This document shows positions 6,189 to 43,436 of a DNA stretch of 64,000 nucleotides, one piece after another. The translations under genes were made by a program, and so were the position numbers. The notes below the pieces were generated by a model. It had not been told where the DNA came from. It ran no database searches and worked only from the letters and a program-made list of their open reading frames with translations. Origin of the DNA: a virus. The stretch covers positions 1 to 64,000 of IMG/VR virus record IMGVR_UViG_3300030380_005342; one strand, 5' to 3'. Every line of letters starts with the position of its first letter. The first letter of the stretch is position 1.

Positions 6189-7994
6189 ATGTATTTTAAA
6201 AATTTTCCTAATACTGAAACTTTAGTTAAAGATAATATTGTCAACGTAAAAAACATTTTGCGTCAAGCAGTCTTCACAAATGAGTCTATTGAACAAGATC
6301 GTGCGTACACGACATATAAAATGAAAGACTCAGATACCCTTGAGTCAATCGCTCTAGATTTGTATGGACGAGAAGATTTAAGTTGGTTGCTCATGATGTT
6401 TAATGAAATGATTGACCCGATGTATGATTCATCACTCAATACAATTTCAATGGACAACTTCATCAATAAAAAATATGATGGACAATCAATTTTTATTACG
6501 GAGAGAGGTTTTTCTTTTCCATTTAGTGTGACTAATGATGAAATCAAGTCCGGTGATCTTGTGATGCGTAGAGAGGGAGACACAGGCAATGTTTCATATG
6601 ATGAAAACAACTATGCTTTTGTCAAGCATTATGATAAAAATCTTTCAAAAATACAACTCTATGAACAAGTCGGAACTTTTAAGAAGAGTGATGACATTGC
6701 AATAATTCGAACCGACACCGAAATCTTAAATGCTAACATCGCTAGGGTTGATGAAAATGGTCGATCATCATTGCACCACTTTGGATTGGGAGTGACTACA
6801 CCTCACTTAGACCCTCTTGGTACAATTCCTGATACGAATGGCACTCAACTATCTCTTGGTGTTACCAGTTCGACAACTGATGGACTTAAAAATACAACTT
6901 TGTTCAGCGACACGCTTCTTCACAAATATCTCTATGAATCAACAGAGAAAGTGCTTGGTGCAAATGCTTTGTCTGCGTCAACAGGCGATAACAATTCTTG
7001 CTCTTTTGATTTCACAGACTTCTTTGGCGGTGTCTCATCACTAAAGGTCGGAAACACATCAGCGAGTTACACCTTCACTGGTTTAGGGGCAACACAAGGC
7101 AGCATAATTTTTAAATTTAAGCCACTAGAAAATTTTGAGGTTGGTGGGTCAGTCACATATGATGGTTTTCCAAGTGATGGAGTGATTACTAGAAGAGATG
7201 AGTACCACACATCAAACATGAGAAGAGTGCTTTCAACTAAAGATTGGGGGATGTATTCAAATGGCACAAAACTTATGATTGCATCAACTCCTGATAAAGA
7301 TACATTCCCCTCAATCGGTAATACGAAGATTCAAGGAAATGGTTATCTTTTTGGTCCCACCAGCACAACAGGATCACAAGGCACAGTGACGGATGACACA
7401 TACGTTTATGATTTGCAAGATGGAATTTTTTCGACAATCGTGATATCATATGATCAAAATAGTAACATATTGTTTTCTGTTGATGCTAGAAGTCCGGTAG
7501 GAGTGACCGCACTTTATCATGCATCTATTTCAGGAGAATTTATTCGTGATGGAGAAATGGTTTTTGGCAAAAATGCAAACGGAAAAAGTTTAATTGTTTC
7601 CGGTACAATGGAAAATGGTGCTGGCGAGACAATGAATGTTCCTCAATATTCAAGTGGTGTTACTGATGAAAGTTTGCTCTTTTTGGTTGACTCTTTGGGA
7701 TTCTCAAGTGGCACGCTAGATTTGTCTAGTTATGACGCAAGATCAAAACTTTTTGAAAAGTATAGAACAATTGAAATTGGAGACACCGAAGCAGAAGCAT
7801 CAAACACTCAATTGTTCGAATACGCTGAACCAACGTCTTTGATTACGGCTAATACCTCAGTTAATCAATATCGTGTTCTAAATTCTGATTATGAAATTAC
7901 TAAAAACATGACCAGTGGCACACTGAAACTGCCCAACCCTTCAATCGTTTCGCAGGTCGAACTTGAAATGAGGAAACTGTTGAGCGATGTCTGA
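6189..7994 (+). CDS. gp53: Baseplate wedge protein gp53 with large internal insertion
   Basis: MYFKNFP, LysM-like DTLESIA.DLYG...L.WL.MMFN..IDP, LHHF, C-terminal DYE...N.....L..P. Confidence 0.8.
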   Translation: MYFKNFPNTETLVKDNIVNVKNILRQAVFTNESIEQDRAYTTYKMKDSDTLESIALDLYGREDLSWLLMMFNEMIDPMYDSSLNTISMDNFINKKYDGQSIFITERGFSFPFSVTNDEIKSGDLVMRREGDTGNVSYDENNYAFVKHYDKNLSKIQLYEQVGTFKKSDDIAIIRTDTEILNANIARVDENGRSSLHHFGLGVTTPHLDPLGTIPDTNGTQLSLGVTSSTTDGLKNTTLFSDTLLHKYLYESTEKVLGANALSASTGDNNSCSFDFTDFFGGVSSLKVGNTSASYTFTGLGATQGSIIFKFKPLENFEVGGSVTYDGFPSDGVITRRDEYHTSNMRRVLSTKDWGMYSNGTKLMIASTPDKDTFPSIGNTKIQGNGYLFGPTSTTGSQGTVTDDTYVYDLQDGIFSTIVISYDQNSNILFSVDARSPVGVTALYHASISGEFIRDGEMVFGKNANGKSLIVSGTMENGAGETMNVPQYSSGVTDESLLFLVDSLGFSSGTLDLSSYDARSKLFEKYRTIEIGDTEAEASNTQLFEYAEPTSLITANTSVNQYRVLNSDYEITKNMTSGTLKLPNPSIVSQVELEMRKLLSDV

Positions 7995-9504
7995 TACTTC
8001 AAACTTGAATCGTAAATCTTATGAGAAGAAAGATGATGTTGTAATCAACTCAATTTATCTTTACACACCAGACACTCTTATTGAACTGGATAGTGGCGAC
8101 TTCGTAAAAGAATTAATCATTTATGAAAATATGATTGACTGTTTTCAAACTGGTCTTTTAGTTTTGACAGACAATAATAGACTCTCTGAGATAATTGATT
8201 TTACGGAAGCCTGCTATGTGGTTGTAAGTTATAGAACACCCTTGCCAAGACGAATGCAAAATGGTATGGGCGGCTTTGTTGATGAAAAACTTATCGAGAC
8301 ACCAGCCACCGTAGTGTTCAAGGTATACGAAACTGTATCAAAAACAAGAGGAACAAAACAAACGGCACAGTTTGAGGCATTACACCTTGTAAGTCCATCT
8401 TTATTTTTAAATGACATCAGTGTAAAGAGTCAGTCGGTTCGTGGAAATGCAATTGATATTATTAAAAATCTTGCGAGCAATTATTTTTATGACAGGAGTG
8501 GAGGAGACTCAACATCTGGAAAGGCTATGGTCACGACAAGTCTGCCAAACTTTAAGGAAATTTCTCTAGAGAGACTGCCCGCAGACAAAGCGTTGACAAT
8601 GATTGATGATAATTATGACTTCCTAAAGGTCACGGGCAAAACAACTGAAGAGTTAAAAATTGCATTTCCGTTTTCTAGGGCTTTGTATAAAATTAAAGAG
8701 ATCGCACATGATCTTGAAACAAGCAATGGAAAACAAGGCTATGTGTTTTGGGAAACACACACAGGTTTCAAATTAGCCCCCAGACAATATTTGTATGAGC
8801 AAAAACCATTGATGCTTTTAACAAAAAGTCAAGTCGATGCACAATACAATTCGCAATACAACCCCGGACCAATTATGAACATTTACGACATGGATGATTT
8901 CGAAATTGGTGGCTCACATAAAAGATCGATGCAAATCCGAGATGGTGCTTTTCAGTCAACAATGTACGTTTATGATATTACAAATAAGACTTACTATAAA
9001 AGTAACTTTTCATACAATAGGGGATATGTGGGAAATATCAGCGGTAGATACCCTGTCATCAATCCTAACAAAATTTCTCCAAGATTCACTGAGGTGAGTG
9101 ATGGGGTGCATAAAGTTTTTACAAAAGACATAGCCTCGGGTAGATTTAATAAGTCAAGGTTTAGTGGAGAAATTGATGAACGGAACTTCGGACACGCGGA
9201 TGTTCAACAACTGGTTCATAGTGAGAAGGCATTATCCATGGATACTTACATGGAAGTAAACACTTCTGGTATGCATTTTATTGAAGCCGGTAATACTGTG
9301 CAAATTCTTATACCACCTGCGACTGCCTCTCAAGATAATTCTTCCGACAAGCAGTTATCAACCACATACTTGGTTGACTCGGTTACACATGTCATTGACT
9401 TTATTACAAAAAGTCATAGAATGAAACTTGGTTTAAGTAAAAATTTCAAAACAACTGAATCTTCAACAGTTCAGTTACAACCAAGTGAGGGAGTGGGTGC
9501 TTAA
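7987..9504 (+). CDS. Putative baseplate hub protein (gp27-like)
   Basis: IYEN...TG.L.L.D, Y.FWET..GF, G.TV.I..P, LS..YLV..V.H; lies between gp53 and gp5. Confidence 0.6.
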   Translation: MSDTSNLNRKSYEKKDDVVINSIYLYTPDTLIELDSGDFVKELIIYENMIDCFQTGLLVLTDNNRLSEIIDFTEACYVVVSYRTPLPRRMQNGMGGFVDEKLIETPATVVFKVYETVSKTRGTKQTAQFEALHLVSPSLFLNDISVKSQSVRGNAIDIIKNLASNYFYDRSGGDSTSGKAMVTTSLPNFKEISLERLPADKALTMIDDNYDFLKVTGKTTEELKIAFPFSRALYKIKEIAHDLETSNGKQGYVFWETHTGFKLAPRQYLYEQKPLMLLTKSQVDAQYNSQYNPGPIMNIYDMDDFEIGGSHKRSMQIRDGAFQSTMYVYDITNKTYYKSNFSYNRGYVGNISGRYPVINPNKISPRFTEVSDGVHKVFTKDIASGRFNKSRFSGEIDERNFGHADVQQLVHSEKALSMDTYMEVNTSGMHFIEAGNTVQILIPPATASQDNSSDKQLSTTYLVDSVTHVIDFITKSHRMKLGLSKNFKTTESSTVQLQPSEGVGA

Positions 9505-10400: not shown

Positions 10401-10411
10401 GGAGTTTTTGT

Positions 10412-11059: not shown

Positions 11060-11343
11060 TGGCTTTATTTGCTGCTACGGTTGATACTAATGTAATCGGC
11101 AAGGAGGGCATTGGTAAAATATTTACTGGTGAACTCTCAGTTTTGATTGAGGGCAAGCCAGCCTCAAGACTTAGTTCAATGGTTTCACCATATCCACCCG
11201 AAAAAGTTATTAGTGAAATAATCACGGGATCACAATCAGTCTTAGTTGGAGGATTAAATATGACAAGAGGTACAGATATTAATAATTTACTCGATAAGGT
11301 GGATAACACCACATGTGCTACTTCGGTTGTGGTGGGACCATGA
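11059..11343 (+). CDS. PAAR-like spike tip protein (gp5.4-like)
   Basis: V.IEGKPASR, I.TGS.SVLVGG, C..SV.VG. TGATG overlap suggests start at 11059 (ORF track 11044). Confidence 0.7.
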   Translation: MALFAATVDTNVIGKEGIGKIFTGELSVLIEGKPASRLSSMVSPYPPEKVISEIITGSQSVLVGGLNMTRGTDINNLLDKVDNTTCATSVVVGP

Positions 11344-12224: not shown

Positions 12225-12230
12225 TACATA
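12225..12230 (+). promoter_or_regulatory. Late promoter variant TACATA, 5 nt upstream of gp25 ATG
   Basis: TACATA-CAAAT-ATG, no SD. Confidence 0.5.
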
Positions 12231-12235
12231 CAAAT

Positions 12236-12616: not shown

Positions 12617-14574
12617 TGCCAGCAAAAAACCTTAGCGTCAACTCAGTAGATTTTGATGTTGTCAGACAAAACATCAAAACATATCTTTCAAATTCAGATA
12701 CGTTCACAGACTACGATTTTGAAGGATCAGCGATGTCAACTCTGATTGACACTTTGGCATACATCACATATTATCAAGGCATCTACAATAACTTTGCAGC
12801 AAACGAAATGTTTCTTGACACTGCGAAAAAAAGAGCGTCCGTGGTTTCTCATGCAAAGGCACTTGGTTACACTCCTAGATCCTACTCAGCACCTACAGCG
12901 TCCGTAAATGTGATTCTTGGATCGACTGCTGGTTACTCAAGCGTTCTTCCTGTTGGTAATATTTTTTCAACAACTGTAAATGGTAGAAATTACAATTTTG
13001 TAAACTTAGAAAGTGCAACTATTTCTCTCACTGCTGATAGTGGAGGAACCACACCTCACATTTCGAATCTCTCCGTCAAAGAGGGTGCTTTAAAAAGTAA
13101 AACTATTGTTGTGCCAAACAATGAAAATTATCAAAAAGTTGAGATTGATGATAAGTTTGTTGACACCACCACCATCAAAGTGACCGTTCAGGAGTCTGCA
13201 ACAGATACAAGTGGTATCACAAATTCTTGGGTGAAGGGTAATGATGCTATCTCTCTGACTGCCGGGAGTCGAGCATATTTTGTCGAGGAGGACTACAACG
13301 GAAACTACTCTGTAAACTTTGGTGACGGAGTTGTTGGTGTTACTCTTGCAGCAGGGAATGTTGTCACAGTTAGTTATCTTAGCACCAGCGGTCCTCTTGC
13401 AAATAACGTTGGCATTTTTGATTCTGATCTTGGAGTCAACTCTTTCAGATTTGCCAGCGGTAATACGGTGGATGTCGTAAGTCATGCATCAGGTGGTGCT
13501 TTACCACAAGGAATTGATAGCATTAGAAGATTAGCACCAAGGTCTTACTCCATGCAAAATAGGGCTGTGACAAGAGAAGATTTTAAAACTTTGATTGAGT
13601 CAAACTTTTCTGGGTTCTCTTCTGTTTTTGTCTACGGTGGTGAAGATGCCTCTCCCCCTCAGTATGGAAGTGTCATCATCTCTTTCAAGCCAGTGGCAAA
13701 CACGATTACAACAACTGATTTCAAAAATAATGTTGTGTCATTCCTCAAAGATAGATGTCCTGTGACGATCAATCCAGTTGTGATTGATCCTGAAATTACA
13801 TACGCTAGATTTAACACTCGCGTGGTTTACGATGTAAACAAAACTACACTTACCTCAAATTCTTTGTCTACTTTAGTGCGAAACACTTTATCTGTTTATG
13901 TTTTAGATAACACAGATGACTATGATACTTTCCTTGCGTCATCTGCAATAGAAAAAGATTTATCAGATAACATTGAATCAATAATCTCAGTAAATACCAA
14001 CATTGAAATGGAGCGAAGAATAACTCCTGTTTCTGATGTAGCACTAGACTACTCAATTGATTTTGCAAATCCAATCTTCCATCCCCATGATGGTCATGAA
14101 ATTGTAGTTAGTAGTGAAGATTTTTTATATCTTGATGGAAGTGAATTCAAAACTGTTAGAATCAGAGATGATGGTTTTGGTAATATTAATCTTTTTGAAA
14201 CTTCAGATTCATCTGATAATTTGGTAACTAATTTTGGAACAGTTGACTACTCAACTGGGGTAATTAGTCTTAACGTTGCACGACTCAACACAGTTGGTGC
14301 TTTAGGCACTATCAAAATTAGGGCTAAGTTTGGCGGAGATGTTTTGACCTCTGTTAGAGATAAAGTTATTGTTTATGATAATACGGATGCATTGGCAAAC
14401 GCTGTTAGCGTTCAGACACTTTCACAGGCTACATCTTACACACCAAGTCAAGTAAGTTCCTCATCGGGAACCAGCACAAGCACATCTTCAACGTCAACCT
14501 CATCAGCAAGCACATCATCATCCACAACTTCTAGTGGTGGTGGCGGAGGCGGTGGCGGTTATGGAGGTTATTGA
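12616..14574 (+). CDS. gp6: Baseplate wedge protein gp6
   Basis: DFD..., F.DYDFEGS....LID.LAY, NE.FLDTA..R.SVVSHAK.LGYTPRS, FGDGV.G, QNRAVT..D, GTVDY.TG. Confidence 0.95.
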   Translation: MPAKNLSVNSVDFDVVRQNIKTYLSNSDTFTDYDFEGSAMSTLIDTLAYITYYQGIYNNFAANEMFLDTAKKRASVVSHAKALGYTPRSYSAPTASVNVILGSTAGYSSVLPVGNIFSTTVNGRNYNFVNLESATISLTADSGGTTPHISNLSVKEGALKSKTIVVPNNENYQKVEIDDKFVDTTTIKVTVQESATDTSGITNSWVKGNDAISLTAGSRAYFVEEDYNGNYSVNFGDGVVGVTLAAGNVVTVSYLSTSGPLANNVGIFDSDLGVNSFRFASGNTVDVVSHASGGALPQGIDSIRRLAPRSYSMQNRAVTREDFKTLIESNFSGFSSVFVYGGEDASPPQYGSVIISFKPVANTITTTDFKNNVVSFLKDRCPVTINPVVIDPEITYARFNTRVVYDVNKTTLTSNSLSTLVRNTLSVYVLDNTDDYDTFLASSAIEKDLSDNIESIISVNTNIEMERRITPVSDVALDYSIDFANPIFHPHDGHEIVVSSEDFLYLDGSEFKTVRIRDDGFGNINLFETSDSSDNLVTNFGTVDYSTGVISLNVARLNTVGALGTIKIRAKFGGDVLTSVRDKVIVYDNTDALANAVSVQTLSQATSYTPSQVSSSSGTSTSTSSTSTSSASTSSSTTSSGGGGGGGGYGGY

Positions 14575-17018
14575 TGTCTAGTGGATTGAGTCTTGAAAAT
14601 GCAGGCATTCTTTTAGGTCTTGTTCAACCACCACCACTACAAGGTGTGGTTGAGGGTGACGGCATCACTCTCTCAGTGGACGAGAGAGTTTCGGTGTTGA
14701 TGAATGATGTGTTGCCAAGTTACATTAGTGAAGAATATCCGCTTTTTATTGAATTTTTAAAGACTTATTTTGAATGGGCTGAGGAGTTTGGAAATCCAAG
14801 AGCCGAGGCTGTTCGGATGGCGACATACATCGACATCGATCAAACTCTTTCAAACTTTCTAGACTTTTTCAAAAGCGAGTATCTTTACGGTTTCAATGAA
14901 GTAACATCTGGGATGTCCACTGAGAAGTTGGTGAAAATTGCAAAGGATTTGTATGGAAGAAAAGGTGACAGTGAGTCGATCAACTTTCTTTTCAAACTTG
15001 TCTTTGGTGTTGAGGCATCGGTATCGTATCCAAAAGATTTACTGTTAACACTCTCAGACTCCAATATTGATATTGAGAGAATACTGAAAACAACCAGAGT
15101 GAGTTTACCCGCAGACTTTGAAGGAGTTATTGGTGGTCGAGTAAGTCAAAAAATTACATCAAGATTTTCTGGAGAGATTTGCTCTGCCTTTATTGATGAT
15201 TTTGATTTAAGTCAAAATAATGGTTTGAAAACTTGCACTATTAAACTTAAAGATATTAGCGGAACGTTCATTCCTAATAAAGAAATAGAATTCTCAAAAG
15301 GCTCCACCACATTTTATGAAACTTGTTTACCATTAATTTCATCTGTGGATGTTGGACTGTCTGGATCTGGACACGCGATCAATGATACCATCTCGATCAC
15401 AGATTCATCAGGCAATTTAGTCGCAACTACTTTTGTCTCCGCAGTCGGACGAAGCGGTGATATTGAAAGCGTTGCTCCGATTGACTCAAGATCTATTTTT
15501 CTGGAAAGAGAAACTTACACTGCGACTATTAATACAAATGGCACTGGCTCCTCACTCGATGTGATTGGTAATAAAGCAGTCTCGCAAGATCGAAAGAAAT
15601 TTTTAAGTGATAAGTCTTTGCTGTCTTCTGAGTCTAGACTGCCCGACAACAACAAATACCAAACCCACTCTTACATTGTTCGGGCAGAAAAACAGTTGTC
15701 TGACTATGCAGATATTCTTAGAAAAGTTTGTCACCCCGCTGGCACTAAATTTTTCTCAGAGCATCTTATCAAGAGAACCTTCAACGCAACAACCTTTGAC
15801 TTTAGACCACCAGAAAGTGACGCTGATTACGAAATTATTGAAACTCTTGAAGGCACAGGTAATTTTCAACGTGGTGACACCATCAACCTGTTGCTGGCAA
15901 ATGGTAATGCGTCTGCCACAGCGGAGGTCGTTCGGTTTACGCCCAGTGGCATCTCTCTTCCAGATCCTTTCACTTTTGGCACAGTTTCTTTGCTTTTTTC
16001 GAGTGGTGTCAGTGCAGCAGCAACAAAGATTAAATCCACAAGAGGATTATTCAACATTAGTGCCACGGCTGGTGCAAAATATAGTTCAATCACAAATGAT
16101 AATCTTGTAGTAAATGCAAAGATTGGTAACTACACTCCAGCCACATTTAACATGACCGCTGACTTTCGTGGTGAAACTTATGGTACAACCTTTGCGGACT
16201 ACTATCCAACCGGATATAACGGACTTACACTTGCATCTCTTGGAACATTTTCATCAGGTTCCGCTGTAACCCATGATCCAAAAACTGCTGGCTTCACACC
16301 CGGAGCGATGGGTAGCATATCCGCTGGCACTTTGAACCCAGAGGCATATGGTTTCACCTTTGATGGTGTGACAGCAGGCACTACCCTTGTAGGTTACACG
16401 GTAGAAAACATTGACCAATTAGTAATGATTGGTGGCACTGACTCTACCACGGCAGATCATTGGAATATTTACAGACATCCAAAAAATCTTGTTAACGGTA
16501 TTACAAGTAGCATTCAAACGCTAAGAAGAATTAGATTCTTTACAGAAACAACGGTGGGTGTGAGCGGATCTCTTACCGCAGGATTCACAATTGGTAATAC
16601 TGTCGTTCAACGCGACACAAACATGACAACTGCAATCGGAACAATCGTTGGTTCAACAATCGCTCAACTTTCCACAATCTCTAGTTCTAATTTATCCAGC
16701 GTTGCGAGTATTGAATCATCTGCAACTGGTGGATTTGGACTTGAACTTAGTTCACCATCAGTAAGTGTCTCTGCACAAGACACCAGTGGTGTCACGTTTA
16801 GTGAGACAATAGCAATTGACGTTATCAGTGGCGAATTTACAAATGAATATAATCAAACTGGTGCAAAAATTAAAATGATTGCACTTGAAAGTGGGGCTGA
16901 GAGATTTATCGCGGGGACTGGCGGCATTAACTTTATTAGTGATACATCGGTGACCACAGACATTGCTATGCAACACATAAATATTCAAGACTTCACAGAT
17001 AACATGAGAACCAAATAA
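14574..17018 (+). CDS. gp7: Baseplate wedge protein gp7-like
   Basis: P.Y..EEYP.F.EFLK.Y.EW, LY..KG...S..FLF...FG, YPK, YQ.HSY, HPAGTKFF; between gp6 and gp8. Confidence 0.8.
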   Translation: MSSGLSLENAGILLGLVQPPPLQGVVEGDGITLSVDERVSVLMNDVLPSYISEEYPLFIEFLKTYFEWAEEFGNPRAEAVRMATYIDIDQTLSNFLDFFKSEYLYGFNEVTSGMSTEKLVKIAKDLYGRKGDSESINFLFKLVFGVEASVSYPKDLLLTLSDSNIDIERILKTTRVSLPADFEGVIGGRVSQKITSRFSGEICSAFIDDFDLSQNNGLKTCTIKLKDISGTFIPNKEIEFSKGSTTFYETCLPLISSVDVGLSGSGHAINDTISITDSSGNLVATTFVSAVGRSGDIESVAPIDSRSIFLERETYTATINTNGTGSSLDVIGNKAVSQDRKKFLSDKSLLSSESRLPDNNKYQTHSYIVRAEKQLSDYADILRKVCHPAGTKFFSEHLIKRTFNATTFDFRPPESDADYEIIETLEGTGNFQRGDTINLLLANGNASATAEVVRFTPSGISLPDPFTFGTVSLLFSSGVSAAATKIKSTRGLFNISATAGAKYSSITNDNLVVNAKIGNYTPATFNMTADFRGETYGTTFADYYPTGYNGLTLASLGTFSSGSAVTHDPKTAGFTPGAMGSISAGTLNPEAYGFTFDGVTAGTTLVGYTVENIDQLVMIGGTDSTTADHWNIYRHPKNLVNGITSSIQTLRRIRFFTETTVGVSGSLTAGFTIGNTVVQRDTNMTTAIGTIVGSTIAQLSTISSSNLSSVASIESSATGGFGLELSSPSVSVSAQDTSGVTFSETIAIDVISGEFTNEYNQTGAKIKMIALESGAERFIAGTGGINFISDTSVTTDIAMQHINIQDFTDNMRTK

Positions 17019-17027
17019 GGAGAGCAA

Positions 17028-18956
17028 ATGGCTACCGTTACAATTGACCAACAATTCAAAACTGATCTGGCAAAAAGATATGTAAAATCTTTTGATGCTT
17101 TCAGAGATGAAAACTCCTTTATTTTTATTGGTAGAGTTCTCGGTGATGCTCAGTCTACAAGAACAGAGCAGAATGATGATGCAACAAGAAAGAATATTTT
17201 GTTTGCAAAATTGATCACCCCCGATGACGTTTCTCTTTTAATTCCTAGAGTCAACTGGACGAGCGGAACTTCATATGATGAATACGACCCGTCCTTAGAT
17301 ATGACTACAAAAAACTATTATGTTTACAATGAGGCAAACTCTAGTGTGTACGTTTGTTTCAAGAAGGGAGAGGGATCTTCCGTAAATATTCCTAATACAA
17401 CTGCACCCGATCCAGAAGTTTTTTCTGATGGATATGAGTGGAGATATATTTTTACGGTCAGTAGTGCAAATCAAAAATTTATTGACGATGATTACATTCC
17501 GATTGAAACATTACCATACTATTCTGGACTTGTCACAGCGTACGGGGAGTCGGCTAAACAAAGTCAATACTTTTCACAATATGCGGCAATCACTGATGCT
17601 TTGAATGGGACGATTAGATCCGTAGGTATCACTGGAACAAACACTGCTGTTTATGGTAAATCAATTCTTTCAAATCCAGATAGAACTTTACTTTCTGCTG
17701 GTAAAACGAGTGCTGTTCTTGGTGGCGGTATTGCAAATGCGTCTGATGATTATTATAACGGCTACGCTGTGCGATTTGTTGACGGAAACGCTATTGGAAT
17801 TGTCGCAGAAATCACAGATTACGTTGGTGCTGATAACCAAATCATTTATGGTTCTATCACAGGTGCTACACCTGATGTTGGTGACAAATATGAAATTTTA
17901 CCTTTAGTAGATTTTACTGGTGATGGTAGTGGTGCGACAGCATATGTTGAAGTGAATACAGATTTTACAGCAAGAGAGGTTGTCGTAACAGATGTTGGTT
18001 CTAACTACTCCAACGTCACAGCAGTAATTGGGACGGCAAAAGATTCTGGAACCGCTCCAACACTCGCACCAAGAATTTTCGATGCTTTAGGAAAAGATCC
18101 CGTAAGTGAGTTGCTCCCTGTTAATGTTAAACTTCGCGTGAAAATTGAGGGTGATGAAAACGCAAATGCAATGATTGGAAATGATTATAATGAAGTTGGT
18201 ATTTGGGGATCACCCTCGGTTGGTATTAGTTACTCAAATACTGGACTGAGTGCAGGTTTTGATAATTTTACTAGCACAGTGGTTGACGTTAAACCTGCAT
18301 CCGGGCAATTGTCAAAAACTTTTGTATCCGATTTTAGTAATGACTTTATTTTCGGTAACACTAACAACTCGTTTGGTCGAGTCATAAGTGTGCGAAGAGA
18401 TGGCGAGTCATCGGGTACGTTAACAATCAAAAATATCAAAGGATGTTCTGGTGGATTTACCACTGACGAAGTAATTCAAAATCTTCAAACAGTTGGATCA
18501 ACTTTAGCATCGCAGGGTGGTAACTTGAAACATGTTCGAACAAGAACTTTAGATAGTTCTTTGACAGTGATCAAGTCTGATTGGAGATGCACACACGAAA
18601 TTGGAATTTCATATAACAATTCCACAGGAAATTCACTTCCTCTTATCGATACTTCTATCACTGGTGCTAGTTTATCCACGGGAACAATTTCGGAAGTTCG
18701 ACTTCACCCATCAGCAGCAAACGGGGCAACAATGTATGTCACTAATGTTCAAAAAGGATTCGGTTCTGGAACCTTATCTTTCACTCCCTCAGAAATTGTG
18801 ACTTGTGGGGGCAATGTTGGTGGAGTCACTGTTCAGAATATTTCTGGACCGGAATTAGATTTAAATTCAGGTAATTTGTTATACATAGATGGTATAACCG
18901 CTGTGTCTCGCAACCAAAGTTCAGACGATGTTGTTGAGTTAGTAATTGAGTTCTAA
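17028..18956 (+). CDS. gp8: Baseplate wedge protein gp8-like
   Basis: FIFIGR, K.I...DV...IPR.NW.SG..YD.Y, VY.C, DGY.W.Y, SG.LLYI, V.LVIEF. Confidence 0.85.
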   Translation: MATVTIDQQFKTDLAKRYVKSFDAFRDENSFIFIGRVLGDAQSTRTEQNDDATRKNILFAKLITPDDVSLLIPRVNWTSGTSYDEYDPSLDMTTKNYYVYNEANSSVYVCFKKGEGSSVNIPNTTAPDPEVFSDGYEWRYIFTVSSANQKFIDDDYIPIETLPYYSGLVTAYGESAKQSQYFSQYAAITDALNGTIRSVGITGTNTAVYGKSILSNPDRTLLSAGKTSAVLGGGIANASDDYYNGYAVRFVDGNAIGIVAEITDYVGADNQIIYGSITGATPDVGDKYEILPLVDFTGDGSGATAYVEVNTDFTAREVVVTDVGSNYSNVTAVIGTAKDSGTAPTLAPRIFDALGKDPVSELLPVNVKLRVKIEGDENANAMIGNDYNEVGIWGSPSVGISYSNTGLSAGFDNFTSTVVDVKPASGQLSKTFVSDFSNDFIFGNTNNSFGRVISVRRDGESSGTLTIKNIKGCSGGFTTDEVIQNLQTVGSTLASQGGNLKHVRTRTLDSSLTVIKSDWRCTHEIGISYNNSTGNSLPLIDTSITGASLSTGTISEVRLHPSAANGATMYVTNVQKGFGSGTLSFTPSEIVTCGGNVGGVTVQNISGPELDLNSGNLLYIDGITAVSRNQSSDDVVELVIEF

Positions 18957-18965
18957 GGAGTAAAC

Positions 18966-29557: not shown

Positions 29558-30404
29558 TGTTTACTACATTTTACAATGAAACAATTCGTAGAACAGTCGT
29601 AGGCTTTGGTAGTCTTTTTGATGATATTTTTGTTCAAAGAAAAAACTCCGCTGGAACTTTACAGAAAAAAATACTCGTTCCAATTACTTACTCTGCGAAA
29701 GAAAAATTCTTTAGAATGCTCAGAGAGTATCCGATCCTTAAGGGTGAGGATAGTGATATTCACATTGGTCAGGTCTTGCCTCGCATGGGATTTTCTGTCA
29801 CGACAATCGACTACGATGGGTCTAGAAAAAGAAATACATTATCTCAAAGATTTTTAGATGGCGATGTCGATTCTGCGTCAGGTAAATTACTCACAAACAA
29901 AACACAGTTTGCTGAGGTTCCGTACAATATTGGATTCAATCTAGCGATTGCTACGCGAACAAATGACGATGCTCTTCAAATCATTGAGCAAATTTTGCCA
30001 TTCTTCACACCAGAGTTTACGATTACAATTAACTACACATCTGAAATGAATACAAAAATTGATGTGCCTATTATTTTAACTGGCGTGACTCCAGAGGTAG
30101 AGTTTGAGGGTGATACGTCAGAGCAGAGATCAGTAATTTATAATTTATCATTCACCGCACAAACTTATCTTTTCTCGCCCATCAAAACAAACAAGATCAT
30201 TCGGGAAACTCAAGTCACCGGATTCTTCTCAAACTTCGATTCCTCTGGTGGCATCAGTGGACCTACAGGTGCAGCCTTCAAGGCTGTGTCGAGTATCACC
30301 GGACCATCTGGTGCAAGCACCAACCCACCTGATGCGACAGTGACAACTGATGTATTTGAATTTGGTGGTAGTGGTGGTTTAAGTATCACTGGAGGTACAT
30401 TAGC

Positions 30405-30408
<4 letters not shown>
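29557..30408 (+). CDS. gp15: Tail terminator / sheath stabilizer gp15
   Basis: FY.E.IR..VV.FG.LF..I, VP..Y..KEKF, LPRM.F, YD..RK, VPYNI, D.LQI.EQILP.F.P. Confidence 0.95.
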
Positions 30409-32484
<2,076 letters not shown>

Positions 32485-32496
32485 TCTAAGAAAGAA

Positions 32497-32502
32497 TAAA
32501 TA
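32497..32502 (+). promoter_or_regulatory. Late promoter TAAATA upstream of gp18
   Basis: ATAAATA, then AAGGAG SD and ATG 32528. Confidence 0.7.
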
Positions 32503-32527: not shown

Positions 32528-34960
32528 ATGGCATTTCAAGTCAGCCCCGGTGTTCAAGTTAAAGAAATCGATCTTACCTCCATTATCCCTGCTGTTGCCA
32601 CAACGCGGGCTGGTTTTGCTGGAGAATTTGATTGGGGTCCAGCGGAAGTTATTACCACTGTTACTGGTGTCAACTCCCTGAGAGAGAACTTCTCTGACCC
32701 ATCCGATACAAACTACGTCAGTTGGTTCACAGCAGCCAACTTCCTTGCTTATACAAACAACCTTCAAGTTGTTCGTGTTCTTGGATCTGGTGCTAAAAAC
32801 GCTGCTTCAATCGGCACAGGTGTTTTGATTAAGAATAGAGATGACTATGATAGCAAAAGTGCCTCTGATTTAGGTGATAACGTCTGGATCGCAAAATTTG
32901 CTGGTGGTGCTTCTGGTGCAAATGATGGTACTCTTGGTAACTCGATTCAAGTTTCTGCATTCAACAGAACCACAACAAACATTGAGTTGTTTGACTTTAA
33001 CACCTTTGGTGCTATCACTGGTATTGCAACTGCTGGTAGTTCAACTGAATCGGGTAACTACTCCCCACCTGCCGCTGACAAAACATTCTACTTTGCTTCG
33101 AATACTTTAGTTGCTGATGGCTTTACCAAAGGCACAGTTATTGATGTTGCAAATGCTGGAACCACTGGAACAAATGCTGCTGATAATTTATTGATTGAAG
33201 GATTGAACAGCAGACTCGTCACGGGAACCACCGCAGCAGTCGCATTTAGCATGACCGCTGGTCATACGGGAACAGGCTTTACAATCGGTGGAGCATCAAC
33301 CGGAATCACAGGTCTTCGTGTTGTTGGAACCACGACACCGAGTTCAAATATCGCTGGTGGTGCGACTGGTACTCAAGTCAGAATTCATACCGCAGGACAT
33401 AACGGTGCAGCAGTTGAAATTCTTGGCATGATTCGAGGCATCACGGCTGAAGCATCAGCCATGACTTTAGATATTGCGTTTGGTGCAGCGATTGGTGCAA
33501 CATTCTTTGCCGCTGCCGGAGCGACCATTGACATCTTAGGTACGATTGAAGTTGGGTCAACCGCTGCGAATCAAGCAGGCAAAACTGCTGCACAAATCAC
33601 ACCAAGATTTGCAAGTAACTTTACCACCAATCTTCCTGCAACGAGTCAATTTACTTTGCAAAAAGGTGCAACAAACGACTTGCTCAATGTGGCAGTCATT
33701 GACCACGCTGGTGACTGGACAGGTAACACTGGTGAAGTTCTTGAGGTCTTCGATGGTGTCTCGGTGAACCCGAACGCTAAAGATTTTGCTGGAAACTCAA
33801 TCTTCTACAAAAATGTTATTAATGATCAATCCGAATACATCTACTTTGGTGCGAAGCATGTTGATGCAGGATCTACTGCCGGTATGCAACCCGGAGGCAC
33901 AGATAACCTTGGCAACGCAGGTGCATCTTTCGGTGTAGCCGCTGGTAGTGGAACAAACTATCATCTTCTGCCCAAAGCAGCAACCGTACAACTTGGTGGT
34001 GGCACTTCTGGTGCAGCCGTCACGGACTTCATCACCAACGGATTCGATAAGTTCTCAGATACAGAAACAGTTGATGTCAACATTCTCGTTGGCGGTGGTG
34101 TGACAGGTAACAATGCGAAGAGCGTTGCAGAAATCGCACTGAATAGAAAAGATGCGATTGCATTCTTCTCACCACCTCAAGATGCTGTTCTTGACTCCAC
34201 CGGATCTTCACCCCTTTCACAGATTCAAGCAACTGCAAACGCTGTTGCATATCGTAAGGGTCTGAATGGCAATGTCAGTGGTGGTAGCAAAGATTACACT
34301 TCTGGTAACCTTAATATTAATAACTCTTACGCTGTTCTTGATAGTGGTTGGAAATACTGCTTTGACAGATTCAACGATGTTTTCAGATATATTCCACTCA
34401 ATGCTGATACCGCTGGTGTGACCGTTCGAACCGATATTCTCGGTGAGCCTTGGTTCTCTCCTGCTGGATTCAACAGAGGACAGTTGAACGGAGTTGTCAA
34501 ACTCGCTTACAGCCCTGTGAAGAGCCAACGGGATGATCTCTACTCAAGTCAGGTCAACCCTGTTGTATCCTTCCCCGGTCAAGGCACTGTGTTGTTTGGT
34601 GATAAAACAATGCAATCTTCACCGTCTGCTTTTGATAGAATCAATGTTCGAAGATTGTTCATCATTCTTGAGAAAGCAATTTCAACAGCAGCCAAGTTCC
34701 AACTCTTTGAAATCAACGATGCATTCACACGATCACAATTTAGAGGTTTGGTTGAGCCATTCTTGCGAGATGTTCAAGCAAGAAGAGGTATCACGGACTT
34801 CAAGGTTGTGTGTGACGAAAGTAACAACACTTCAAGTGTCATCGATAGAAACGAATTTGTTGCAAGTATTTTTGTCAAGCCAACACGCTCGATCAACTTC
34901 ATCACCCTTAACTTTATTGCCTCTGCGACTGGTGTAAACTTTGACGAGATCGGTGGATAA
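32528..34960 (+). CDS. gp18: Tail sheath protein gp18 with Gly/Thr/Ala-rich insertion
   Basis: SPGVQVKEIDLT, F.WGP, PWFSPAGFNRG, RD.LY...VNPV, GDKT, FDRINVRRLF, FEIND..TR, KP.RSINFI.LNF.A. Confidence 0.98.
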   Translation: MAFQVSPGVQVKEIDLTSIIPAVATTRAGFAGEFDWGPAEVITTVTGVNSLRENFSDPSDTNYVSWFTAANFLAYTNNLQVVRVLGSGAKNAASIGTGVLIKNRDDYDSKSASDLGDNVWIAKFAGGASGANDGTLGNSIQVSAFNRTTTNIELFDFNTFGAITGIATAGSSTESGNYSPPAADKTFYFASNTLVADGFTKGTVIDVANAGTTGTNAADNLLIEGLNSRLVTGTTAAVAFSMTAGHTGTGFTIGGASTGITGLRVVGTTTPSSNIAGGATGTQVRIHTAGHNGAAVEILGMIRGITAEASAMTLDIAFGAAIGATFFAAAGATIDILGTIEVGSTAANQAGKTAAQITPRFASNFTTNLPATSQFTLQKGATNDLLNVAVIDHAGDWTGNTGEVLEVFDGVSVNPNAKDFAGNSIFYKNVINDQSEYIYFGAKHVDAGSTAGMQPGGTDNLGNAGASFGVAAGSGTNYHLLPKAATVQLGGGTSGAAVTDFITNGFDKFSDTETVDVNILVGGGVTGNNAKSVAEIALNRKDAIAFFSPPQDAVLDSTGSSPLSQIQATANAVAYRKGLNGNVSGGSKDYTSGNLNINNSYAVLDSGWKYCFDRFNDVFRYIPLNADTAGVTVRTDILGEPWFSPAGFNRGQLNGVVKLAYSPVKSQRDDLYSSQVNPVVSFPGQGTVLFGDKTMQSSPSAFDRINVRRLFIILEKAISTAAKFQLFEINDAFTRSQFRGLVEPFLRDVQARRGITDFKVVCDESNNTSSVIDRNEFVASIFVKPTRSINFITLNFIASATGVNFDEIGG

Positions 34961-34962
34961 CG

Positions 34963-35548: not shown

Positions 35549-35557
35549 GGATAGATT

Positions 35558-39293: not shown

Positions 39294-39949
39294 TGTTACT
39301 CATCACTGAACACACCGAAGATGTTAATCTAATCACCGAAGAGGTTGATGGCGAAAAACAATATCATATTGATGGTGTTTTTATGCAAGCCGAACAAAAG
39401 AATCGTAATGGTCGTGTGTATCCAAACAAGACATTGATGAATGAAGTGGCTCGATACAATAGGGAATATGTAACACCAAGTCGTGCGATGGGTGAACTCG
39501 GACACCCCGATGGTCCCCAACTTAATCTTGAAAGAGTGTCTCACTTAATTAAAGAACTTCGTATCGATGGAAATGATGTCTATGGAAAGGCAAAAATTCT
39601 TGATACTCCATATGGTAAAATTGTAAAAGATCTTATCAAAGAAGGAGTTAAGATCGGTGTCTCATCTAGAGGTATGGGTTCACTTAAACAAAACAAAAAA
39701 GGTATCAATGAAGTACAAGATGATTTTAGTCTTGCCGCTGTTGATATTGTTGCAGATCCATCTGCTCCTGATGCCTATGTTCAGGGCATCATGGAAGGCA
39801 AAGAATGGGTGTGGGAAAACGGTATTCTCACATCCCGTGAAATTGAATCTCACAAAGAAGTGATTTCCAAAACTCCAAAAAGGAACTTAGACGAGGCTAA
39901 ATTGTATTGTTTCGCTGATTTCCTCTCAAAATTACGCAAACATAAATAA
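39293..39949 (+). CDS. gp21: Prohead protease gp21
   Basis: MLLITE, I.GVFMQ...KNRNGRVYP, GELGHP, VSH, GVSSRG.GSL, DIVADPSAP.A.V.GIME..EW. Confidence 0.98.
   Translation: MLLITEHTEDVNLITEEVDGEKQYHIDGVFMQAEQKNRNGRVYPNKTLMNEVARYNREYVTPSRAMGELGHPDGPQLNLERVSHLIKELRIDGNDVYGKAKILDTPYGKIVKDLIKEGVKIGVSSRGMGSLKQNKKGINEVQDDFSLAAVDIVADPSAPDAYVQGIMEGKEWVWENGILTSREIESHKEVISKTPKRNLDEAKLYCFADFLSKLRKHK
39943..39948 (+). promoter_or_regulatory. Late promoter TAAATA upstream of gp22
   Basis: ATAAATA, then AAGGAG SD. Confidence 0.65.
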
Positions 39950-39973
39950 AGAGGAACACTTAAGGAGAGTCCA

Positions 39974-41245: not shown

Positions 41246-41268
41246 GACTACCGAAAGGAAATTCAATA

Positions 41269-42711
41269 ATGTCTACTGAAACTCCATTAGTCGAAGGTCT
41301 GCGTCAGAAGTGGCAACCCGTCATCGAACATGCTGATCTTCCAGATATCCAAGACAGTTATCGCAAGAATGTTACTGCGATTCTGCTTGAAAACCAAGAA
41401 AAGGCTCTCCGCGAAGAAGCAAACGTTTCTGGCGTTGATGCCGTTTTCTCCGATACATCCGGTAACTTTAATAGTGTTTCCGGCTTCAACCCTGTTCTGA
41501 TCTCACTCGTTCGTAGATCTATGCCTAACTTGATCGCCTATGATGTCTGTGGTGTCCAGCCTATGTCTGGTCCTACAGGTCTGATCTTTGCGATGAAGGC
41601 TAAGTTCACCGCCCAAGGCTCTGCTGAAGCACTCTTCAATGAAGCCCCAACTGGATTCGGTGCTACCGTTGGTGGAGCCGCTGGTGCTACACAATCTGGT
41701 GCTGGATTCCCATCTTTCGGTGGAACTGGTGACCCTCTCGGTAACGTGTCTAGATCTGGTTCTACCACAGGTTACTCTGCTGGTCTTGGTTCTACGTCAG
41801 CCACCATTGACGTTGATCCCGGTGCGCCCACTTCATTCTTTGAAGGTAGCAATACCTTCGGTGAAATGGCTTTCTCAATCGACCGTCAATCGGTTGTTGC
41901 GAAAACTCGTGCATTGAAAGCAGAATACACCTCTGAGTTGGCTCAGGATCTTAAGGCTGTTCATGGTCTGGATGCTGAAACAGAATTGGCTAACATTCTC
42001 TCGGCTGAAATCCTTGCTGAAATCAACCGTGAAGTTATCCGCTCCATCTATCGTGGTGCAAAACTCGGCTGTCAGCAACGCGACCTTACTTTCAAGAGTA
42101 GTGGTGCAACAGTTCCTATCGCTGGCGATGCTGTCAATGGCGGTGGTGTCTATGATGTCCAACTCGACTCCGATGGTCGTTGGAGTGCTGAGAAGTTCCG
42201 TGGTCTGATGTTCCAAATCGACCGCGAAGCCAACGTGATTGCTAAAGAAACTCGTAGAGGAAAAGGTAACTTTATTATCTGCACCTCTGACGTTGCTTCG
42301 GCTCTCGCCATGTCTGGTTTCTTGAACTTGACCCCAACACCTAATGTCGATCTTGAAGTCGATGATACTGGCAACACCTTCGCAGGTACGTTGAACGGTA
42401 AGATTAAGGTCTACATTGACCCATACTCCGTGTCTGGTGCTGATTACATCACCGTTGGATATAGAGGCACAAGCCCCTATGACGCTGGTATGTTCTACTG
42501 CCCATACGTTCCTCTGCAAATGGTCAGAGCAGTCAACGAAACCAACTTCCAACCGAAGATTGGCTTCAAGACCCGTTACGGTATGGTAAACAACCCATAC
42601 GTTTCGGATGGCTCTAACTTGTCAGATCCGTTGGCTGCTGCTGCGGCTCGACAGAACCAATACTACCGTATCTTCCGTGTTCTTAACCTTCACGGTAATG
42701 GTACTCCCTAA
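41269..42711 (+). CDS. gp23: Major capsid protein gp23
   Basis: KW.P, TA.LLENQ, PVLISLVRR.MPNLIAYD.CGVQPM.GPTGLIFAM, RALKAEY..ELAQDLKA.HGLDAE.EL.NIL, FYCPYVPLQM, FQPKIGFKTRYG. Confidence 0.99.
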   Translation: MSTETPLVEGLRQKWQPVIEHADLPDIQDSYRKNVTAILLENQEKALREEANVSGVDAVFSDTSGNFNSVSGFNPVLISLVRRSMPNLIAYDVCGVQPMSGPTGLIFAMKAKFTAQGSAEALFNEAPTGFGATVGGAAGATQSGAGFPSFGGTGDPLGNVSRSGSTTGYSAGLGSTSATIDVDPGAPTSFFEGSNTFGEMAFSIDRQSVVAKTRALKAEYTSELAQDLKAVHGLDAETELANILSAEILAEINREVIRSIYRGAKLGCQQRDLTFKSSGATVPIAGDAVNGGGVYDVQLDSDGRWSAEKFRGLMFQIDREANVIAKETRRGKGNFIICTSDVASALAMSGFLNLTPTPNVDLEVDDTGNTFAGTLNGKIKVYIDPYSVSGADYITVGYRGTSPYDAGMFYCPYVPLQMVRAVNETNFQPKIGFKTRYGMVNNPYVSDGSNLSDPLAAAAARQNQYYRIFRVLNLHGNGTP

Positions 42712-42732
42712 GACTTAGAGTAGTTTATGACG

Positions 42733-42765
42733 GGACAAGGGGGGCGAAAGCCCCCCTTGTTCATT
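42733..42765 (+). terminator. Strong hairpin after gp23 (likely terminator or mRNA-stabilising stem)
   Basis: ACAAGGGGGGC-GAAA-GCCCCCCTTGT, 11-bp stem with GNRA loop; weak T-tract. Confidence 0.8.
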
Positions 42766-42768
42766 ACC

Positions 42769-42774
42769 TACATA
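42769..42774 (+). promoter_or_regulatory. Late promoter variant TACATA, 5 nt upstream of gp3 ATG
   Basis: CTACATA-ATTGT-ATG right after the gp23 hairpin, no SD. Confidence 0.55.
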
Positions 42775-42779
42775 ATTGT

Positions 42780-43436
42780 ATGAGCGAATTTGATCAAAAT
42801 CCTTTTTTAGATTTTAAGCAACAGTTTGATTTTTCTGGGGTTACATCAGAGTCCATCTTCACGAAAGGCTTTAACCTTCCGGGTGTGACCTTTGGTGCAG
42901 AGACATCAAATCCAAACAGCAATCCTAGAAAACAACCAACAAATGTAAACTATCTTTATCAAACTTTTTTCAGATTTAGCATTCAAGGTTTTGATAAATT
43001 TAATTACTTTTGTCAGGCGGTGACACTTCCCGGCTTTGGTCCCGGTGATGCAGTAACACAAGCCACACGATTCTCAAATTTAAAAATACCTACCACAAAA
43101 GTAACCTTTGATAATCTCGATGTTACCTTTTTGGTTGATGAAGATATGGCGAATTGGAGAGAGATACAAAACTGGATGAAAACAATTTACTTGATTGAAG
43201 ACCACAAAGGTCTTGAAAAGGAGTTTTCAAATCAGATTCGTGATGGTGAGTTGATTATTTTAAATAGTGCAATGAAAGCAAACCTTCATATTAAATTTAA
43301 AAATATCTTTCCTGTTTCTTTGTCTGGTCTTGAGTTTGATTCGAGTGTGAGTGATCTGACACCATTTACCGCCACTGCTTCCTTCGCGTTTGACACCTAT
43401 GACTTCGTAGATCCTGAATCTGGATTTTCTCTGTGA
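42780..43436 (+). CDS. gp3: Tail tube terminator / completion protein gp3
   Basis: NYL....F.F, YFCQ...LPG, L.VTFLVDEDM.NW.EI..W, F...FP.SL..L.FD; follows gp23. Confidence 0.88.
   Translation: MSEFDQNPFLDFKQQFDFSGVTSESIFTKGFNLPGVTFGAETSNPNSNPRKQPTNVNYLYQTFFRFSIQGFDKFNYFCQAVTLPGFGPGDAVTQATRFSNLKIPTTKVTFDNLDVTFLVDEDMANWREIQNWMKTIYLIEDHKGLEKEFSNQIRDGELIILNSAMKANLHIKFKNIFPVSLSGLEFDSSVSDLTPFTATASFAFDTYDFVDPESGFSL

Follow-up and report, generated by a model that had tools for sequence, protein, structure and literature searches.

Introduction

In Clostridioides difficile, the glycosyltransferase SgtA joins a GT-A domain to four tetratricopeptide repeats (TPRs) in 358 amino acids and is encoded immediately upstream of bclA3. 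The collagen region of BclA3 consists of GPT repeats, and SgtA adds beta-O-linked N-acetylglucosamine (GlcNAc) to Thr residues of short synthetic peptides (PMC7157674). Here we describe a similar arrangement in a virus, on the first 64,000 nucleotides of IMG/VR record IMGVR_UViG_3300030380_005342 (hereafter the window, meaning this whole stretch). The window encodes a soluble GT-A glycosyltransferase followed by TPRs, which we call GT2-TPR, directly upstream of a gene for a Thr-rich, Gly-x-Thr collagen-like surface protein, and, in a separate block, the virion proteins of a T4-like phage. We find that the triplet Gly-x-Thr (G-x-T, x being any residue) occurs in these virion proteins far more often than chance would allow, and we weigh whether it is the acceptor site, or sequon, of GT2-TPR, comparable to N-x-S/T or to the D-S/T-A/I/L/V/M/T motif of Bacteroidetes. 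We liken this enzyme to SgtA by architecture and gene neighbourhood, not by direct alignment, and the two differ in several respects: SgtA is bacterial, is shorter (358 versus 423 amino acids) and is known to modify a single protein; a sequon enrichment across its proteome has not been reported; and it takes Ser as well as Thr in vitro, whereas the enrichment here is confined to Thr. Because SgtA modifies short linear peptides, a triple helix is not needed, and isolated G-x-T triplets could be substrates.

Two further groups of enzymes share this build. GmaR, the flagellin O-GlcNAc transferase of Listeria monocytogenes, has an N-terminal glycosyltransferase domain followed by TPRs (PMC9638930; PDB 22ao), which are thought to bind the protein substrate, and the order of domains is that of GT2-TPR. 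GmaR modifies several exposed Ser/Thr residues of a polymerising structural protein in the cytoplasm, as we propose here, but it has an extra anti-repressor domain (637 amino acids), no known G-x-T preference and no collagen partner. SunS and ThuS (PDB 7msn, 7msk) also combine a GT-A domain with a helical TPR-like domain and act on peptides; they differ in that their target is Cys (for ThuS also Ser/Thr) in the precursor of a bacteriocin.

The neighbouring gene has its own parallels. In bacterial collagens Thr is the commonest residue at the Y position, and BclA is glycosylated (PMC8968730). BclA of Bacillus anthracis/cereus is a filament with Thr-at-Y collagen-like repeats that carry O-glycans (PMC8968730), and the 277-amino-acid protein encoded next to GT2-TPR has a BclA-like layout, its collagen region being flanked by N- and C-terminal domains. 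BclA belongs to the spore, however, and not to a virion.

Among phages, mycobacteriophages encode glycosyltransferases that decorate their own capsid and tail proteins (Freeman et al. 2023, cited in PMC12619734), and PMC12619734 places the glycans on the C-terminal tails of capsid and tail-tube subunits. That glycosylation is experimentally proven, whereas the system described here is predicted from sequence. The two also differ in design: the mycobacteriophage glycans sit on C-terminal tails, and here we find a dispersed triplet, internal capsid sites, an unenriched tail tube and another type of enzyme. Our literature search turned up experimental proof of virion glycosylation by phage-encoded enzymes for mycobacteriophages only, and it yielded nothing on a G-x-T sequon, on any other phage sequon or on a glycosylated T4-like virion.

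Results

G-x-T is overrepresented in the virion proteins

The window opens a 74-kb viral contig that stems from an uncultured T4-like myovirus of marine origin. Its capsid protein shares about 55% identity with those of Methylophilales phage Melnitz, Pelagibacter phage HTVC008M and cyanomyoviruses. An earlier note on this DNA had pointed to a dense recurrence of G-x-T and G-x-S in the outer structural proteins and to its rarity in terminase, portal, scaffold and replication proteins. The examples it listed (in gp18, gp7, gp8, gp53, gp14, gp15, gp3, gp23 and both fibre-like proteins) are all present, and the gp18-like sheath is indeed rich in the triplet, with 21 copies rather than the 15 counted by hand. 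To place such counts on a common footing, we called open reading frames (ORFs) and compared G-x-T and G-x-S in each protein with 500 shuffles of the same protein. We also pooled the 26 proteins of the virion module (12,226 amino acids) and scored all 20 × 20 residue pairs at gaps of 0–3, of which 1252 were testable.

In the pooled virion module, G-x-T occurs 153 times against 95.1 expected (z 6.5) and ranks first among the 1252 gapped pairs, without having been chosen beforehand. G-x-S stands at expectation (102 versus 95.8, z 0.7), and G-T, G-x-x-T, G-x-x-x-T and T-x-G are all flat. The density noted earlier thus holds for Thr and not for Ser. The 30 non-structural proteins show no excess, with 26 G-x-T against 25.7 expected, in keeping with the rarity seen by eye.

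The excess persists after correction for composition. Local shuffles within windows of 10–50 residues retain a z of 5.8–6.3, and a first-order Markov model predicts 96.5 triplets against the 153 observed. Only two sites are in tandem, and the isolated ones alone number 151 against 93 (z 6.7). Gly and Thr codon usage is the same at G-x-T sites as elsewhere, and blastp among the virion proteins revealed neither paralogy nor internal repeats. These controls rule out repeats or paralogy, tandem mini-collagen runs, a nucleotide motif and local or dipeptide composition as trivial causes. That the signal is a statistical or annotation artefact, from composition, repeats, mis-called ORFs or a nucleotide motif, is hardly credible: the initial count was made by eye and the extended motifs described below were chosen after seeing the data, but the pair came first of 1252 with no prior selection, the local-shuffle, Markov, tandem-site, codon and paralogy controls all pass, and the excess recurs in six further genomes but is missing from six controls (see below). 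With that replication and every control passed, we reject this explanation. The G-x-T excess in the virion module is real, far beyond chance and specific to Thr.

Two other sequence signals were considered. N-x-T is not enriched (55 versus 65.6), and we reject a reading in terms of HMW1C-type N-glycosylation for that reason. The second most over-represented pair in the window's virion proteins is the dipeptide Ser-Gly (143 versus 95, z 5.4). Melnitz (z 6.9) and HTVC008M (z 6.7), both without the enzyme, show it just as strongly; it is therefore unrelated to GT2-TPR and general to the structural proteins of these marine T4-like phages.

GT2-TPR resembles protein glycosyltransferases and is linked to collagen-like genes

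GT2-TPR matches Pfam PF00535 (Glycos_transf_2) at residues 9–100 with 46.9 bits (cut-off 23.3) and has weak Pfam TPR matches at residues 192–276. The DxD motif (D92-A-D94), D38..D43 and a D-T-G-S-T-D loop are invariant in 23 homologues of 23–75% identity. An AlphaFold model, with a mean predicted local distance difference test score (pLDDT) of 91, alternates strands and helices over residues 1–175 and is all-helical over 178–410; no membrane segment is predicted. The best sequence match in the PDB is GmaR (E 1.2e-12, over the glycosyltransferase domain), and the best whole-length Foldseek matches are ThuS/SunS (E 2e-14, about 400 aligned columns), with TPR proteins also matching. Membership of the SunS family itself was rejected, because the NCBIfam TIGR04195 score is far below its cut-off (24.3 versus 350 bits); no glycocin gene was seen nearby. 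By its sequence matches and predicted fold, GT2-TPR belongs to the group of GT-A+TPR enzymes directed at proteins or peptides, and we propose that it is a protein O-glycosyltransferase. Homologues about 25–28% identical over some 330 residues occur in Clostridium, Paenibacillus and Bacillus genomes; these were not identified as SgtA.

The coupling of GT2-TPR to a G-x-T collagen-like gene, also remarked on earlier, is confirmed, with the ATG of the collagen-like gene overlapping the GT2-TPR stop codon (Table 1). The protein matches Pfam Collagen (PF01391, 64.5 bits against a cut-off of 27.2) and PHROG tail-fibre families, and a Thr-rich collagen-like ORF lies directly downstream of the enzyme in 12 of 14 close relatives. 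We extended this to 80 viral loci with GT2 homologues, scoring each for a Thr-rich collagen ORF within 10 kb. Such an ORF was present at 18 of the 35 loci whose match extends into the TPR part (full-length), at 2 of the 45 core-only loci and at 1 of 80 portal control loci (Fisher p 2e-6 for full-length versus core-only and 2e-10 versus controls).

The linkage also recurs far from the T4-like phages. The Acidobacteria jumbo phage Tunturi_5 has a 35%-identical enzyme 4 kb from a 1469-amino-acid tail fibre, gp29 (16810–21219), with eight interrupted (G-x-T)n runs (G-x-T 79 versus 30, z 10). In gp29 the collagen-like runs alternate with repeated globular modules of about 100 amino acids (W..Y..GD.V...G..Y type), and its gene adjoins those of four paralogous 280-amino-acid proteins and GT2-TPR. 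Bacterial homologues stand beside period-9 Gly-Gly-Thr or Gly-Ala-Thr repeats in Mycobacterium asiaticum and in a Paenibacillus. In M. asiaticum (NZ_LZMH01000003.1), a 37%-identical full-length homologue (3791–4951) directly follows repeats at 2–3631, about 3.6 kb of period 9 with units such as GGC-GGC-ACC (Gly-Gly-Thr in that frame), which look like a PGRS-like Gly/Thr-rich protein paired with the enzyme. Because the linkage of enzyme and collagen-like repeat recurs across viruses and bacteria, the Thr of G-x-T is probably the acceptor of this enzyme family.

The excess accompanies GT2-TPR in T4-like phages

In T4, virion proteins contain 49 G-x-T triplets against 56 expected (z -1.0), and the sheath gp18 has 1 against 4.7. 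Nor was there an excess in Melnitz (z -0.7), HTVC008M (z 1.9), S-SSM4 (z 1.9), a complete 177-kb metagenomic phage (G009, z 0.6) or a 72-kb metagenomic fragment (G007, z 1.2). No GT2-TPR homologue was detected in any of these six, G007 being a fragment only. By contrast, IMG/VR holds many close homologues of GT2-TPR, and the enzyme has more than 120 protein clusters at 49% identity or above. In four large contigs with the enzyme (G001–G004), G-x-T ranks first among about 1100–1350 pairs (z 4.5, 3.6, 6.0 and 5.0), and G-x-S is flat in all four virion modules.

For a rough background only, we surveyed IMG/VR from the portal gene, obtaining 80 loci among the matches listed, mostly on short contigs. 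Sheath, neck and capsid proteins in these matches have a pooled observed/expected ratio (O/E) for G-x-T of 1.28, with few outliers. G006, the sole high-G-x-T outlier on a long contig among the matches listed, had been scored before its enzyme was found, and among 14 surveyed records searched for the enzyme only G006 has GT2-TPR. Its virion module reaches a z of 4.4 (rank 2), and many of its baseplate and fibre proteins, several enriched ones included, have no detectable homologue in the window. Downstream of its enzyme, with one small ORF between, is a 2513-amino-acid protein with 77 G-x-T against 38. A more distant phage, G033, whose enzyme is 39% identical, has 60 against 38 in its virion proteins (z 3.6, rank 7) and 18 against 17.6 in the rest.

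In total, the excess is found in 7 of 7 T4-like phages with GT2-TPR and in 0 of 6 without a detected homologue, so that the co-occurrence anticipated in the earlier note was borne out, with all positives falling in one clade. Among about 80 clamp-loader loci and four further large contigs, no clade member lacking GT2-TPR was found, and all large clade contigs examined retain it.

The fragment G007 has peculiarities of its own. Its virion proteins (G007:C1:1-40000) show extreme excesses of A-N, N-x-A and Y-x-x-x-N (z 11–16), presumably from a repeated fibre motif, and it encodes a 612-amino-acid (G-x-T)n collagen protein, yet has no general G-x-T excess.

The sites concentrate on exterior-type proteins

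Taken protein by protein (Table 1), z is 3.0–4.5 for the gp53-like and gp7-like proteins, both fibre-like proteins and the sheath, and 2.7 for the capsid protein. We grouped the virion proteins by T4 homology into an exterior set (sheath, capsid, gp14, gp15, gp7-like, gp8-like, the extended gp53-like protein and the two fibre-like proteins) and an interior set (tube, tube cap, hub, gp25, gp6, portal, core, protease, scaffold, gp3 and gp13). The exterior set has 111 G-x-T against 52.9 (z 8.7) and the interior set 17 against 19.6, with no excess, a split that is only descriptive because it was made after the values for each protein had been seen. For the tail tube the count is 1 against 1.1 expected.

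The same proteins are enriched in relatives. Observed/expected counts in orthologues are 18/8.1, 17/8.5 and 15/8.7 for the gp7-like protein; 15/7.3, 16/9.1, 17/9.4 and 12/6.7 for the Gly-rich fibre-like protein; 11/5.2, 11/4.7 and 15/5.6 for the Gly/Thr-rich fibre-like protein; 7/2.6, 6/2.1, 7/2.3 and 4/2.5 for gp14; and 6/2.1, 6/2.2, 8/2.0 and 4/2.0 for gp15. The clade-conserved 1911-amino-acid protein is an exception among the large baseplate and fibre proteins, having no excess (19 versus 16.6), and its relatives behave likewise.

Within proteins, the sites favour regions that do not align to T4 counterparts. In the gp53-like protein they lie at residues 201–531, inside the C-terminal extension. 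In the sheath, residues 5–95 and 484–809 align to gp18-type structures, and 17 of the 21 sites fall in the middle part (residues 96–483), which is unaligned to solved gp18 structures and corresponds to about residues 96–332 of gp18, which we take to be the outward-facing domains of the T4 protein. Thirteen sites fall in a sheath insertion at residues ~150–360 (window ~32975–33610) with 20% Gly and 16% Thr. Clade members share this insertion, few other marine T4-like sheaths have it, and it may form an outer domain that is either disordered or novel. In the capsid protein the sites occur internally (residues 101–368), five of the eight lying in a Gly/Ser/Thr-rich segment, residues 120–190, unaligned to T4 gp23.

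Sites turn over while their density and context are kept

Among orthologues at 25–50% identity, most G-x-T columns are unique to one sequence (27 of 41 in the sheath are singletons). Positions thus turn over, and each orthologue still keeps its excess. Across the closely related G001, G002 and G003, conservation is 0.85 for the Gly and 0.77 for the Thr of G-x-T, 0.59 for x and 0.60–0.70 for the flanks; Thr in A-x-T, S-x-T, G-x-x-T and T-x-G remains at the local background of 0.61–0.71.

Pooling 540 sites from five clade members gave an extended context, [A/T/S]-[A/T/S]-G-[V/A/I]-T-[G/F/A]-[A/G], in which K, E and D are underrepresented at positions -2, -1 and +3. Neither this context nor the K/E/D depletion is seen at the G-x-T sites of enzyme-negative phages. 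Against local shuffles, O/E is 2.9 for G-x-T-x-[GA] (z 8.3), 2.1 for G-[VAI]-T (z 5.7) and 2.0 for G-x-T-[GA] (z 4.5), these extended motifs having been defined post hoc from the same data. Read as a whole, the context is similar to one repeat unit of the adjacent collagen-like protein. Across the non-virion proteins (window 267–4258, 30405–32484 and 43507–62442, and contig 66850–74023), G-x-[TS]-[GA] falls below expectation (2 versus 9.3 expected, with no shuffle as low), and in enzyme-negative phages it is slightly enriched (22 versus 12.6).

The triplet might also mark some other process, for example another kind of Thr modification, or the docking of the collagen-like fibre or of a decoration protein. 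An enrichment that is virion-restricted and position-independent would be expected in that case too, and nothing points to it specifically. The 74-kb contig yielded no candidate for such an enzyme or binding partner, and the collagen repeat contains the very same triplet, which is the target of the adjacent enzyme's analogue (PMC7157674). We regard this alternative as very unlikely.

Acceptor sequon or structural habit

We consider the best explanation of these data to be that G-x-T is the acceptor triplet of GT2-TPR and has been spread by this clade over the virion surface, to which we assign a probability of roughly 0.5. Spelled out in full, with a deep and abundant clade of marine and aquatic T4-like phages coating capsid, sheath, neck, baseplate rim and fibres with phage-made O-glycans through a Gly-x-Thr(-x-Gly/Ala) sequon read by one SgtA-like enzyme, the proposal is more tentative, and we hold it just short of even. 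The earlier note had proposed a glycosyltransferase that recognises G-x-T/S, with acceptor sites accumulated on the virion surface. The enrichment, the exterior-type distribution, the class of the enzyme and its linkage to collagen-like genes speak for that proposal; its Ser half fell away, and the single clade and the jumbo phages tell against the rest.

These last points belong to a set of observations that weigh against an acceptor sequon. In a tree of portal and capsid proteins, the enzyme-positive phages form one clade (support 92/99, then 89/97 with G033). Because the positives are monophyletic, the split of 7/7 and 0/6 is one evolutionary event, not thirteen data points, and enzyme and enrichment may simply be two inherited traits of one clade. 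Tunturi_5 and a 356-kb phage, G023, have the enzyme and G-x-T collagens and no dispersed virion enrichment, so the enzyme–collagen pair alone is insufficient for dispersed sites, and only the T4-like clade shows the pattern across the virion. The excess conservation of Thr is modest (Fisher p 0.045 and 0.16 in two pairs), and the depletion of G-x-[TS]-[GA] was not reproduced in the non-virion proteins of G006 (4 versus 3.4) or G033 (4 versus 4.6). The exterior and interior groups were drawn up with the per-protein values in hand. The AlphaFold model of the sheath, built on a 33-sequence alignment, has pLDDT below 50 over residues 157–352, exactly where 13 sites lie, which is too low to place those sites on or below the surface. 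Ser also serves SgtA as an acceptor in vitro (PMC7157674), yet the window has no corresponding excess of G-x-S. Finally, the glycan coat itself is a prediction from genome sequences.

The main rival is that the enzyme acts on the collagen-like fibre only and that dispersed G-x-T is a structural habit of the clade, co-inherited but unlinked. One could picture the clade's outer insertion domains, rich in Gly, Thr and Ala, using a Gly turn that leads into a beta-strand whose V/A/I is buried and whose Thr faces outward. Such a habit would fit the confinement of positives to a single clade, the preference for V, A and I at x, as for an inward-pointing strand residue, the location of many sites within clade-specific insertions of unusual composition, and the jumbo phages in which the enzyme–collagen pair comes without dispersed enrichment. 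It sits less easily with the lack of detectable homology among the enriched proteins, several of which in G006 have no detectable homologue in the window either, and with sites that turn over at constant density, unlike a fold-defining motif. The outer domains of GT2-TPR-negative relatives show no such excess, and local shuffles, which remove composition, leave z at about 6. We judge a structural habit possible, at odds well short of even.

A hypervariable glycan island surrounds the enzyme

GT2-TPR lies in a glycan island that extends from the clamp-loader gene to the DNA polymerase gene (Table 1). Its sugar-building part encodes, in order, a UDP-glucose 6-dehydrogenase-like protein, two small ORFs, an NAD epimerase/dehydratase, a weak GT25-like match, GT11 and GT10. 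After the collagen-like gene come a 387-amino-acid protein, a 154-amino-acid protein, an Fcl-like reductase and a DegT-family enzyme. The island sits downstream of the clamp-loader gene in about 80 related loci, and its constant core in the clade is the GT-A+TPR enzyme, with the (G-x-T)n collagen-like gene next to it in most relatives.

The rest of the island is hypervariable. p125, p141, the GT25-like gene and GT2-TPR are near-constant among relatives, and GT10, GT11, the epimerases, DegT, the Fcl-like gene and UDP-glucose dehydrogenase are gained or lost between them. Nearly all relatives encode a homologue of the 154-amino-acid protein (phrog_1084, contig 65749–66213) beside GT2-TPR, often placed between it and the collagen-like gene. 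This protein is itself rich in G-x-T (6 versus 1.7 in G033, 4 versus 1.6 in G006) and may represent another constant partner of GT2-TPR.

The earlier note had described GT2-TPR as a late-promoter gene. The T4 late promoter consensus, TATAAATA, is absent from the whole window, and CTAAATA is not over-represented in it (8 versus about 11). What GT2-TPR has in common with the sheath and scaffold genes is a loose TAAATA-type element: ATAAATA precedes the sheath (32490–32500) and scaffold (39945–39955) genes by about 17–25 nt before the ATG, and CTAAATA lies at 62439–62445, 17 nt before the ATG of GT2-TPR. Because only this loose element is shared, late expression of GT2-TPR is best read as a suggestion.

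The composition of the island bears on a further alternative, in which the island, GT2-TPR included, modifies a target other than the virion (host envelope glycans, or another phage or host protein) and the collagen gene is merely adjacent. The island sits among replication genes, outside the structural block; PHROGs places the enzyme family in the category 'moron, auxiliary metabolic gene and host takeover'; and GT10 and GT11 families usually take oligosaccharide acceptors. Yet linkage to a collagen fibre recurs in unrelated viruses and in bacteria, the nearest characterised relatives of the enzyme all act on proteins or peptides, and its model is soluble and confidently folded with no predicted membrane segment. 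The TAAATA-type, late-promoter-like element 17 nt before its ATG, as at the sheath and scaffold genes, also counts against this alternative, and we think a non-virion target unlikely.

Table 1. Positions of the features discussed in the text (window coordinates unless marked as contig).
Feature	Position	Strand	Matches and remarks	G-x-T observed vs expected
T4-type virion module	4280-43436	+	baseplate, fibres, neck, terminase, sheath, tube, portal, prohead core, protease, scaffold, capsid, gp3	
gp53-like baseplate wedge protein, long C-terminal extension	6189-7994	+	Pfam Phage_gp53, residues 5-83 only	11 vs 4.9
gp7-like baseplate wedge protein	14571-17018	+	PHROG and Pfam baseplate wedge matches	17 vs 7.9, z 3.5
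gp8-like baseplate wedge protein	17028-18956	+	phrog_438	10 vs 5.8
1911-aa protein	18966-24701		DUF4815 and phage tail collar domain; phrog_358	
Gly-rich fibre-like protein	24714-26669	+	no family match	20 vs 9.7, z 4.0
Gly/Thr-rich fibre-like protein	26672-27724	+		14 vs 6.9, z 3.1
gp14-like neck protein	28667-29557	+	phrog_460	6 vs 2.8
gp15-like tail sheath stabiliser	29557-30408	+	phrog_227	4 vs 2.9
Tail sheath, gp18-like	32528-34960	+		21 vs 8.9, z 4.5
Major capsid protein, gp23-like	41269-42711	+		8 vs 3.4
Clamp-loader gene	56622-57569		glycan island begins after it	
Sugar-building part of glycan island	57566-62442	+	Pfam and NCBIfam matches	
GT2-TPR, putative glycosyltransferase, 423 aa	62463-63734	+	GT-A residues ~1-175, helical TPR-like 178-410	
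(G-x-T)n collagen-like fibre gene	63734-64567 (window ends at 64000)	+	277 aa, ~45 triplets, nearly all G-x-T	
DNA polymerase gene	contig 69649-72147		beyond the window; far border of glycan island	

Discussion

We have described a clade of marine T4-like phages in which an enriched triplet on virion proteins, an enzyme of the GT-A+TPR type and a collagen-like gene made of that same triplet occur together. From the enrichment, its distribution over proteins and over the clade, the family and fold of the enzyme and its linkage to collagen-like genes, we infer that GT2-TPR acts on the Thr of G-x-T, that the dispersed sites are substrates and that together they make up a coat with a purpose.

Under the acceptor-sequon explanation, events would run as follows. 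Late in infection, GT2-TPR would O-glycosylate the Thr of G-x-T in the cytoplasm, its first substrate being the collagen-like fibre, much as SgtA modifies BclA3. The GT25-like, GT11 and GT10 enzymes, fed by the nucleotide-sugar enzymes of the island, may then extend the glycan. Because such enzymes accept short linear peptides, isolated triplets could be modified as well, and G-x-T in flexible, uncharged, surface-exposed parts of other virion proteins would be, preferably in the form [A/T/S]-G-[V/A/I]-T-[G/A/F]-[G/A]. The sequon would thereby have spread from the collagen-like fibre onto unrelated structural proteins and be held there by selection, which would have roughly doubled the triplets on sheath, capsid, neck, baseplate periphery and fibres to give a glycan coat.

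If this is true, it would be, as far as the literature that we searched shows, the first sequon-based glycosylation of a whole particle in a bacteriophage, and glycosylated virions would become recognisable from sequence. The acceptor specificity of SgtA/GmaR-like GT-A+TPR enzymes, so far poorly understood, would be defined as well. A T4-like group common in ocean metagenomes would then carry a sugar coat, which could affect adsorption, the stickiness and decay of particles, grazing and host recognition.

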